Positions 45,522-48,500 of a DNA stretch of 64,000 nt are shown one piece after another. The translations under genes were made by a program, and so were the position numbers. The notes beneath the pieces are model-generated. The model had not been told where the DNA came from. It searched no databases and saw only the letters and a list, made by a program, of their open reading frames with translations. Source of the DNA: Staphylococcus phage vB_SauM-UFV_DC4; sequence record MZ779063.1; one strand, written 5' to 3'. Position 1 is the stretch's first letter; every line of letters begins with the position of its first letter.

Positions 45522-48500
45522 ATGGCAGAAGTTTTTAATAAAGATTTAAAAGAGATAGTTCACGATAATATGATGATTTATTTTAATGAAATTAACACTA
45601 ACCGTCAAATACCGGATATTAGAGATGGTTTGAAACCTATTCAAAGAAAAATATTATATATTATGTATAAAAACGGTTATAGATCCGATAAGAAATTTGC
45701 TAAATCAGCTAGAATAGCTGGAGACACAACTATATTACACCCACATAGTAATGATGGTATTTATGATTCTGCAGTTAATATGGTTACACCGTTTTCTATG
45801 AACCAACCATTAATTGAAGGACATGGTGCATTTGGTTCTATTACAGGAGCTTCTGCAGCCGCTTCACGTTATTGTTTAACTGGAGAACATATAGTTGATA
45901 TGAGTAATGGAGAACTTGTAAGAATTAAAGATATAGTACCTCATAGTGAATTAAATAGTGATAATAAAATTGATAAAGTTGTTATGGACTTTAGACGTAA
46001 ACAAGTTAAAGCTATTAAATTCTTTAATTCAGGTAAACACAATGTAATGGAATTAAATACTAATGCAGGTAAAACTATTAAAGCTACTCCAAATCATCCT
46101 TTATTAACCGTAATCAAACATCCAACAAAAGGATTAGATTTCAAATGGAAAACAATGGATGAAATTGAAAAAGGTGATTACTTAATCAACAGAACTATGA
46201 TTAAGAATGATCTTAAAGATTTTAGAAGTAAAAATCTTAATGAAAATGAAAAAGAAAGCTTTAAAAAATGGGGAGAAATTCTTTCTAATAAGTATTTCAA
46301 TAGAACTTTAGATCCTGAATATGGAGTATTAATGAGAAGTATTGAAACTGAAAAAAGCCTTCCTAATAAAGTATTAGAAGCATGTTTAGGATATAAGAGA
46401 GAATTCTTATTAGAATTATTTAAACAAGATGGATTTATTGTAGATAATATTGGTTTAGTTATCGAAAGTCATAGTAAAAGATTCTTGCAAGAAATAGCTA
46501 CTTTATTATCTCAATTTGGTATTTATTCTGTAATATCATTATTCAGTGATAGTGATTATAGATTACAAATTCAAGATATTCACTCACTTAAAAATTTATC
46601 TAAACACTTAATTAAAGATGATGATTTATTTAAAGATAAAATTGATGAAATTATTGATATGTATAGAAATTTAGAAAGTAATAATCCATATCAAGTTATT
46701 CCTTATTTAGATGAAGTATTAGATGAAAGAAAAATGACTTCTTATCTATATACAGAGTTATTTAATACTAGAAAGAATTTCTTAAATAACTTTAATTTAC
46801 TTGAGGAAGAATACGGTATTGAAATTGAAGAAAGAGATCATTTAATGTTATTTATCTCTAAATACTTAGATAACTATACTTATTTTGAACAAGTAGAAAG
46901 TATTGAAGAATTGGAAGAAGAGGAAGTAGTTTATTCTATTAAAGTTGATACAGAAGATCACTCATTTATGTCTGAAGGATTTATTCATCATAATACAGAA
47001 ATGAGATTAAATAAATTCTCAGAAAGAAATTTATTAGATAATATCAATGATAATGCAGTTAATATGGTTAAGAACTTTGATGGATCAATGTTAGAACCTT
47101 TAGTGTTACCTTCTAAATTACCTTATGTGTTAGTTAATGGTTCATTTGGTATTGGCGGTGGAGGACATAGATCTGATTTGCCACCACATTCTACTGAAGA
47201 TGTAATTAATATCACTATTGACAGAATTAAAAATCCTAATAAGAAATTAAAAACACTTATTAAAGATAATAAGTTTAAACCACAATTTCCTTATGGTGGA
47301 GAAGCATTTTGTGATGATTTAGAGAAATGTTATCGTACAGGTAAAGGTTCTATGTTATTAAGATCTGTAGTTGAAAAAGATGAAAGCAAAATGACTCTTA
47401 CAATTAAAGAAATTCCATATAACGTTACTTTGACTAGAGTTAAAGAAGCTATCAGAGAAGCACATAAAGAAGAACAATTAGATGGTCTTAAAAATATTAG
47501 TGACGGAACTCAAAACGGTGATGTTCGTTTAATTCTTCAATATACAAAATCTTCTGACTTAGACTTAGCATTGAATCAATTGTATAAAGTTAAGACAATT
47601 ACTTCTAGAGTTAACTTTGATGTTAAATTAGTAGATAATAATAAACTAGTAGAAACTAACTTATTAGGAATTATTGATAGATGGATTGAATTTAGACAAT
47701 CAACTGTAAAACGTTTTAAATCATTTAAAATTAAAGATTTAAGAAGTCGTATTCATATTATTGAAGGTCTATTAGTTGTATTAGATTCTAAGAATATCGA
47801 TGAATTAATTAAAATAGTTAAATCTGGTAAAGGTAAAGATGATATTATTGATGTAGTTAGTAAGAAATTTGGTATATCTCACGCACAAGCTTCTTATGTA
47901 GCTGAAATGAAACTATATACAATTAATAATCTTGAAATCAACAAATTGGTTGAAGAAAAGAAAGAAAAAGAAAAGATTGTTAATGAAGAAATGGTATACA
48001 TGAAAGATGTAAGTAAATTGAATGATCTTATTATTAATGAAATGAAAGAAATTAAGAAAGATAAAAATACACTTAAACCATCTAGATTAACTAAGTACTC
48101 TGATATTGATTTTAAAAATGATAATAAAGAATTATTAATTAAAGATGAAGATTTCATGTGTATCATTACTAGACAAAATAAGATTAAGAAAGTTAAAGAT
48201 GAAATTAGTAAACCTCAAAAGAGAAATGGTAAAGGTATCTCTATTGGTAAATTATCAGATGGTGATATTCCATTAAACATCTTTAATGCTAATAGTAAAG
48301 ATAACTTATTCTTAATTACTGATACAGGAAAAATATTCTATGATAAAGTTTATGAATTCCCTGAGATTAAATCATTAAATAACTTTGGTAAAGATATCAG
48401 TAGATTTGTTAAGAATGAAAAGATTATTAAAGCATTTACTTTAACTGATGAAGAATTTAAAGATCCAGATACAGCTTTTGTAGTAACGACAGCTTTAAAT

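Follow-up and report, generated by a model that had tools for sequence, protein, structure and literature searches.

The stretch of DNA analysed here, 64,000 nucleotides from Staphylococcus phage vB_SauM-UFV_DC4 (DC4; sequence record MZ779063.1) and hereafter called the window, carries on its plus strand an open reading frame (ORF), 45522..49076, that encodes a GyrA/ParC-type subunit as a precursor of 1184 amino acids (aa). The AAxRYTE motif, the C-terminal beta-pinwheel and a partner B subunit encoded in the same window identify the product as subunit A of a type IIA topoisomerase. The reading frame contains an insert of 374 aa, Cys118 to Asn491 of the precursor (nucleotides 45873..46994), between the catalytic Tyr117 and Thr492. 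This insert is a class-1 intein placed directly after the catalytic tyrosine, an assignment far beyond chance; its N-terminal junction reads ...GASAAASRY/CLTGEHIV... and its C-terminal junction ...EGFIHHN/TEMRLNKF..., and deletion of the intein in silico leaves an extein that reads ...AAASRYTEMRLNKF....

Profile and structure comparisons agree on these boundaries. The insert alone matched Pfam Intein_splicing (PF14890) with E=2.8e-20, and its best match among solved structures was the mini-intein of Mycobacterium xenopi (Mxe) GyrA (1am2, E=2.7e-24), to which both splicing halves aligned; the next match in the PDB was a DnaB intein at E=1.9e-4. In the precursor, Pfam DNA_topoisoIV was found in two stretches, the best-scoring of which covered residues 492-841 (profile positions 92-431), and five stretches of Pfam DNA_gyraseA_C marked the C-terminal propeller repeats. 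The N-terminal 435 aa of the spliced sequence gave one continuous DNA_topoisoIV match (residues 28-435 to profile positions 1-399, E=4.2e-99), and the spliced extein was colinear with the Staphylococcus aureus ParC (2inr) and GyrA structures, with AAASRYTEMRL opposite PAAMRYTEAKL. An initial annotation, made by a model from the sequence alone, had placed an intein at 45873-46994 exactly after the catalytic tyrosine and had predicted that its removal would recreate the topoisomerase active site; the junctions, the Pfam matches and the boundaries annotated in the related phage MarsHill bear out the placement to the base, and the continuous match and the colinearity confirm the restored site.

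An intron, or an intron-encoded ORF, inside gyrA was considered and ruled out on three grounds: the reading frame runs through without a break, the insert has the intein blocks, and a search of the whole 64-kb window against Rfam at gathering thresholds returned no RNA family and no group I or group II intron. The DC4 genome paper likewise reports that no introns were detected by Rfam (PMC10638138).

The gyrA intein is not new. The 1184-aa precursor is identical in sequence to UAJ17059.1, 'DNA gyrase subunit A [Staphylococcus phage vB_SauM-UFV_DC4]'. Both the intein and its LAGLIDADG_3 domain are reported in the DC4 paper, which places gyrA at 141522..145076 in its Table 2, where all gene coordinates that we checked equal the window coordinates plus 96000 (PMC10638138); the window covers DC4 positions 96001..160000. 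Korn et al. gave the same Y117/T492 boundaries in MarsHill and noted an AR9 homologue without the intein (bioRxiv 10.1101/2020.12.14.422802), and GenBank holds matching mat_peptide features in MarsHill, with identical boundaries, and in Machias. The element has thus been described three times already, and its detection from the DC4 sequence is a correct rediscovery; the gyrA inteins of MarsHill, Madawaska, Machias, PALS_2, S6 and DC4 are the same element, the MarsHill copy being 96.8% identical to that of DC4 at the amino acid level. In the passages searched, the two papers name an endonuclease-containing intein and do not mention the degeneracy of LAGLIDADG motif 1 and of the first half-domain. 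The LAGLIDADG domain is probably a decayed remnant, and this degeneracy is all that the present analysis adds to what has been published.

The DC4 region is 98.1% identical to that of phage S6, 97.5% to PALS_2 and 94.9% to MarsHill and Madawaska. When the spliced extein was compared with nucleotide records by tblastn, its match was split in two in exactly nine Staphylococcus jumbo phages among the records listed (PALS_2, S6, MarsHill, Madawaska, LY01, SA1, AH12, Machias and PB50), and in all other records listed the match was unbroken; at least 80% of the extein was covered in 211 of the 230 records with a match. All nine clade members carry the intein at the same codon, with intein identities to DC4 from 98.9% down to 63.9%, and no intein-minus allele of the Staphylococcus jumbo-phage clade was present among these nine relatives in the collection. 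The suggestion in the initial annotation that an intein at this position would be a useful mobility marker therefore fares poorly within the clade. The gene of the Listeria jumbo phage LPJP1 (45.6% identity) is contiguous without an insert and reads ...AQMRYTQMRLNKFSE / ...PAQMRYTQMRLNKFSE....

Beyond these phages, HMMER was run exhaustively against 1.84 billion representative proteins and returned 379 matches at E<=1e-3, the top ones among the best 150 being GyrA proteins with the same junction. We checked the junctions of 152 proteins, namely those best 150 of the 379 matches and two near-identical fragments from a word-indexed search: the same ...RY/C... junction was present in 121, 88 of the 152 had the ...HN/TE.. 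junction in addition, and the inteins ranged from mini-inteins of 150 aa to elements of about 500 aa. By insertion site as well as by sequence, the DC4 intein belongs to the GyrA-a allelic group, the name under which this insertion site is known (PMC5050341); GyrA is among the bacterial proteins that commonly bear inteins, with 50 cases (PMC4760082). The position is the classic GyrA-a site of M. xenopi and Mycobacterium leprae. We found no statement in words of the mycobacterial 'Tyr-130' site in the open-access literature, and the translated deletion primers with which the M. leprae gyrA intein was removed join ...PAAMRY to TEARLT... (PMC6658535). Like the mycobacterial GyrA-a inteins, the DC4 intein sits at the same point (AMRY/C...HN/TEARL in mycobacteria) and has Cys1, a terminal His-Asn pair and Thr+1. 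The differences are that its host gene is a gyrase-like gene of a phage genome with 25% G+C, whereas the mycobacterial elements reside on bacterial chromosomes, and that the Mxe GyrA mini-intein (1am2, 4oz6) has lost its endonuclease entirely and measures 198 aa, whereas the DC4 intein keeps a 224-aa remnant; the two share 18% identity over their Foldseek alignment, and their sequence match is limited to the two splicing halves.

A more distant copy at the same site was observed in an uncultured relative, P0003, represented by a 10.35-kb contig assembled in Logan (ERR13865851; locus L010, 4593..8114). Its extein lies at a Kimura distance of 0.41 from that of DC4, roughly two-thirds identity, and its intein is only 36% identical; the endonuclease is more decayed still, block E reading VIRELLDNYF with no Asp-Gly. 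The presence of a diverged and further decayed intein in this relative suggests, at the level of sequence, that a decaying intein has long resided by vertical descent in the wider phage group.

The elements needed for class-1 splicing are all present in the DC4 intein: Cys1, block B (T72-P-N-H75), block F (VYSIKVDTEDHSF), block G (GFIHHN) and Thr+1. In an alignment of 45 GyrA-a inteins Cys1, N74, H75, V353, S355, V358, H373 and N374 were invariant, as were C1, T72, H75, H373 and N374 among six aligned Staphylococcus-phage inteins, and Cys1 and the His-Asn/Thr+1 junctions are identical in all nine Staphylococcus jumbo phages, so that the canonical termini and the block-B TxxH named in the initial annotation both stand. 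The ratio of nonsynonymous to synonymous substitution rates (dN/dS) was 0.02-0.16 in the extein, indicating strong purifying selection and hence the need for a functional spliced product, and 0.04-0.29 in the intein, a constraint weaker than that on the extein but clear. Since the gene is constrained in this way and the insert comes between the catalytic tyrosine and the next helix, we infer that the intein splices in DC4. The 1184-aa precursor would be translated first, after which the HINT domain would perform the standard four steps: Cys1 undergoes an N-S acyl shift, trans-esterification then proceeds onto Thr+1, Asn374 cyclises with the help of His373, and an O-N shift completes the reaction. 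The products would be a free intein of 374 aa and an 810-aa GyrA whose ...AAASRY-TEMRL... active site is restored.

The endonuclease domain between the two splicing halves presents a different picture. Pfam LAGLIDADG_3 matched the insert in a single stretch (intein aa 174-222; E=1.7e-5; score 25.4 bits, cut-off 22.5), and comparison with 31 full-length (at least 400 aa) allelic inteins located the changes. Block C reads KKWGEILSNKY in DC4, against a family consensus of LLGAL(V/I)SEG; at the catalytic position of motif 1, where 27 of the 31 full-length inteins have (E/D)G, DC4 has Asn-Lys, with Asn in place of the catalytic Glu and Lys in place of the Gly. Blocks C and D lie 29 aa apart, compared with a median of 83 aa in the full-length set, so that some 54 aa are missing. 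The lysine of block D is kept (K161-S-L-P164, for a K-x-I-P consensus), and block E is FLLELFKQDG in DC4 and FL..LFEGDG in the full-length allelic inteins; its Asp186 is invariant among the six aligned Staphylococcus-phage inteins, and Gly187 is replaced by Ser in Machias and by Ala in SA1. The isoelectric point (pI) of the endonuclease region, a crude proxy for a basic DNA-binding surface, is 4.9 in DC4 and 4.6-5.05 across the six Staphylococcus-phage alleles computed, compared with a median of 9.28 (range 5.6-10.1) in the 31 full-length inteins.

The predicted structure points the same way. An AlphaFold run on the single sequence reached a predicted local distance difference test (pLDDT) score of only 34.5 and was discarded; the model used here came from a run with the 45-sequence alignment (pLDDT 89.7, predicted template modelling score, pTM, 0.90). 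It places the beta strands of the HINT domain at intein residues 7-107 and 336-373, one canonical alpha-beta-beta-alpha-beta-beta-alpha unit at residues 172-246, and in the first half-domain only helices, at 124-168, with no beta strands, and one half of the DNA-binding saddle is thus predicted to be absent. The top Foldseek matches of the model were PI-PfuI (1.7e-15) and the TliVMA, PhoVMA, PI-SceI and Mxe GyrA inteins. Taken together, a full pair of LAGLIDADG helices with catalytic acids, the saddle of two half-domains (in the model) and a basic surface as judged by pI are lacking, and the block D lysine is retained. The two LAGLIDADG-like helices of the initial annotation therefore exist as structural elements, with a catalytic Asp only in the second, and its reading of the insert as a homing-endonuclease intein is undercut by the lost motif 1 acid, the shortened spacing, the missing strands and the low pI. 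The LAGLIDADG endonuclease is likely to be inactive, judging from sequence and model.

Two sets of known inteins frame this decay. Full-length GyrA-a inteins of 400-450 aa from genomes and metagenomes (P0004, P0006, P0014, P0036, P0056 and others) share the site, the splicing blocks and the block D/E layout with DC4, and differ from it in having the block C catalytic Glu, a C-D spacing of about 83 aa and a basic endonuclease. The PhoVMA intein (7qst) has a degenerated LAGLIDADG domain that is experimentally inactive, and its pI is 5.45, compared with 10.23 for the active TliVMA intein (PMC8966425). It is among the five best structural matches of the DC4 intein, which resembles it in keeping the endonuclease fold after loss of one or more catalytic residues, in carrying a deletion and in being acidic. 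PhoVMA differs in its VMA host and site, in the loss of the acids of both motifs and in its small truncation of block E, whereas the DC4 intein keeps the Asp of motif 2 and has a large deletion in the first half-domain. The positions of all these parts, and of neighbouring genes, are given in Table 1.

Table 1. Parts of the intein-bearing gyrA gene of phage DC4 and neighbouring genes, in window coordinates.
Feature	Position	Strand	Basis or remark
N-extein, aa 1-117, ending in catalytic Tyr117 (...AAASRY)	45522..45872	+	Pfam on spliced sequence; ParC/GyrA alignment
Whole class-1 intein, 374 aa	45873..46994	+	Pfam; 1am2 match; AlphaFold/Foldseek; MarsHill annotation
Splicing (HINT) half at the N-terminus (intein aa 1-111); blocks A (Cys1-LTGEH) and B (T72-PN-H75)	45873..46205	+	Alignment with residues 3-115 of the Mxe GyrA intein
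Degenerate LAGLIDADG endonuclease-derived domain, intein aa 112-335	46206..46877	+	Pfam; spacing; pI; model
LAGLIDADG motif 1 remnant (block C helix), ...FKKWGEILSNKYF...	46242..46298	+	Alignment to allelic inteins
LAGLIDADG motif 2 (block E, FLLELFKQD186-G187), preceded by block D (K161-SLP164)	46353..46433	+	Family alignment
Splicing half at the C-terminus (intein aa 336-374); blocks F (VYSIKVDTEDHSF) and G (GFIHHN)	46878..46994	+	Alignment with residues 155-199 of the Mxe GyrA intein
C-extein, aa 492-1184 and stop, starting Thr492-EMRLNKF; rest of breakage-reunion domain and C-terminal beta-pinwheel	46995..49076	+	Pfam
GyrB/ParE-type partner subunit, 760 aa	37435..39717	+	Pfam HATPase_c, DNA_gyraseB, Toprim, DNA_gyraseB_C
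Free-standing HNH_3 and NUMOD4 endonuclease ORF, TTG start	43623..44054	+	About 1.5 kb upstream of gyrA
Staphylococcal-nuclease (SNase) family ORF	44147..44518	+	After the HNH ORF

We consider it probable that the DC4 element is, as a whole, a class-1 GyrA-a intein whose endonuclease has decayed, which no longer homes and which is vertically inherited and fixed in its clade. Its presence in all nine related phages makes fixation most likely, and the loss of the motif 1 residue and of about 54 aa, together with the acidic character of the domain, makes it most likely that homing has ceased and that inheritance is vertical. The intein would have gone to fixation in the phage clade, leaving the endonuclease at the post-fixation stage of the homing cycle. 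Its G+C content (24.4%) matches that of the window (24.8%), so that there is no compositional sign of a recent arrival.

Several observations pull the other way. Purifying selection persists in the endonuclease-derived region, where dN/dS is about 0.2-0.3 in divergent comparisons; with that selection, the kept block D Lys and block E Asp and a LAGLIDADG_3 match above threshold, the remnant may retain some nicking or DNA binding. Confidence in the AlphaFold model is lowest, about 60, in parts of the truncated half-domain itself (residues 111-120 and 141-160), and our case for splicing in DC4 is drawn from conserved catalytic residues and from selection on the extein. The intein also diverges faster than the extein, and intein distances place SA1 differently: extein distances put DC4 nearer SA1 than Machias (bootstrap 100%), and intein distances do the reverse (99-100%; three taxa). 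Identity between DC4 and SA1 falls sharply at the intein boundaries, from about 0.92 before the intein to 0.72 within it, and rises to 0.95 beyond it (DC4 45873..46994; SA1 and Machias loci 3501..4619). This discordance could reflect a past exchange of the intein. When the P0003 intein was added as an outgroup the discordant grouping received 67% bootstrap support, and of the branches to the outgroup that of SA1 was the longest. The SA1 pattern can be fully accounted for by a rate effect, and we make no claim of horizontal exchange because three taxa define no topology, the support with an outgroup is 67% and the SA1 branch is long.

These same observations bear on the alternatives. Were the domain a working LAGLIDADG homing endonuclease, it would cut the intein-less gyrA of co-infecting phages and spread by double-strand-break repair. 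The LAGLIDADG_3 match above the Pfam threshold, the retained Lys161 and Asp186-Gly187, the purifying selection on the domain and the conflict between intein distances (DC4 nearer Machias) and extein distances (DC4 with SA1, 100%) would all fit such an activity. We nevertheless regard it as unlikely: motif 1 has no acidic residue, about 54 aa of the first half-domain are gone and with them, in the model, the first-half beta-saddle; the pI of 4.9 lies far from the median of 9.28 in full-length allelic inteins; Gly187 itself varies among the phage alleles; and the absence of an intein-less allele among the nine clade members means that there is no target to home into. The conflicting distances lose force as well, given an outgroup quartet with only 67% bootstrap and a longer SA1 branch that fits a rate effect.

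Somewhat less probable still is that the intein has been domesticated, the splicing domain, perhaps together with a co-opted endonuclease remnant, serving conditional splicing, for instance in response to temperature or redox, that would make gyrase maturation conditional and so gate phage DNA replication. That the remnant stays in frame and under purifying selection across alleles diverged to 64% identity is compatible with such a role; according to Korn et al. (bioRxiv 10.1101/2020.12.14.422802), MarsHill-like phages do not plaque or grow efficiently at 37 C, an effect to which temperature-dependent splicing, if real, could contribute, and conditional protein splicing is documented for other inteins (PMC7360933 and PMC11377839, by their titles). 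However, nothing in the sequence indicates a sensor, the 37 C phenotype has many other possible causes, and any in-frame insert would come under purifying selection anyway, since one that misfolds would keep a needed enzyme from being spliced. In a weaker variant of co-option, the remnant may act as a nickase or DNA-binding module that promotes exchange of the intein between co-infecting jumbo phages. Since splicing of DC4 GyrA is so far deduced from sequence, the insert might conversely not splice at all, as a dead intein, a retained inserted domain or the mark of a gyrA pseudogene. We hold this to be very improbable: every class-1 splicing residue is present and invariant, an unspliced insert would keep the catalytic Tyr apart from the next helix, and all 810 aa of the extein, the C-terminal pinwheel among them, are intact, at dN/dS values as low as those given above. 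The vertically inherited, fixed GyrA-a intein with a decayed endonuclease remains our preferred reading.

The surroundings of gyrA include its partner gene at 37435..39717, whose product appears in the gene table of the DC4 paper as subunit B of gyrase/topo IV (PMC10638138). The initial annotation had pointed to a nuclease-rich neighbourhood, in particular the HNH gene at 43623. A link between that gene and the intein was rejected because the HNH_3/NUMOD4 ORF is free-standing and conserved as a gene of its own. MarsHill, Machias and PB50 have both it and the SNase ORF annotated as genes in their own right, and nothing was found to connect either of the two with the intein.

A further interruption of gyrA was observed in LY01 (OR836606.1; locus L005), whose gyrA ORF ends at 916 aa and has an insertion of about 2.0 kb in the region of the C-terminal domain (5893..7890). 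The insertion point corresponds to window position 48263/48264, at about codon 914/915 of gyrA, and window-like gyrA sequence resumes beyond it. Within the insertion, a 401-aa ORF (L005 6471..7676) resembles TnpB/IS605-OrfB/Cas12f proteins (OrfB_IS605, 8.6e-18; Cas12f1-like_TNB, 7.1e-19). Rfam found no intron at the LY01 gyrA insertion, which may be either a disruptive insertion sequence (IS) or a splicing, IStron-like element. Elsewhere in the window, a 677-aa ORF at 49393..51426 (plus strand) has no Pfam match; together with sequence up to about 52800, it corresponds by position and annotation to the 'viral RNA polymerase beta subunit' of MarsHill and Machias, a gene joined there from 2-3 exons, and the intervening sequence in DC4 includes an ORF at 51511..51939. 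A reverse-transcriptase ORF lies at 29240..30754 on the plus strand (Pfam RVT_1, E=6.1e-21); an RNA-directed DNA polymerase of unclear function was noted earlier in these phages (Korn et al., bioRxiv 10.1101/2020.12.14.422802).

For the annotation of DC4, the intein means that the mature GyrA would be a protein of 810 aa and not of 1184 aa. With an endonuclease that has probably decayed in an element most likely fixed across the clade, these Staphylococcus jumbo phages would offer a natural case, in a virus, of the homing cycle at its post-fixation stage, and their gyrA intein would be unsuited as a marker of ongoing mobility.

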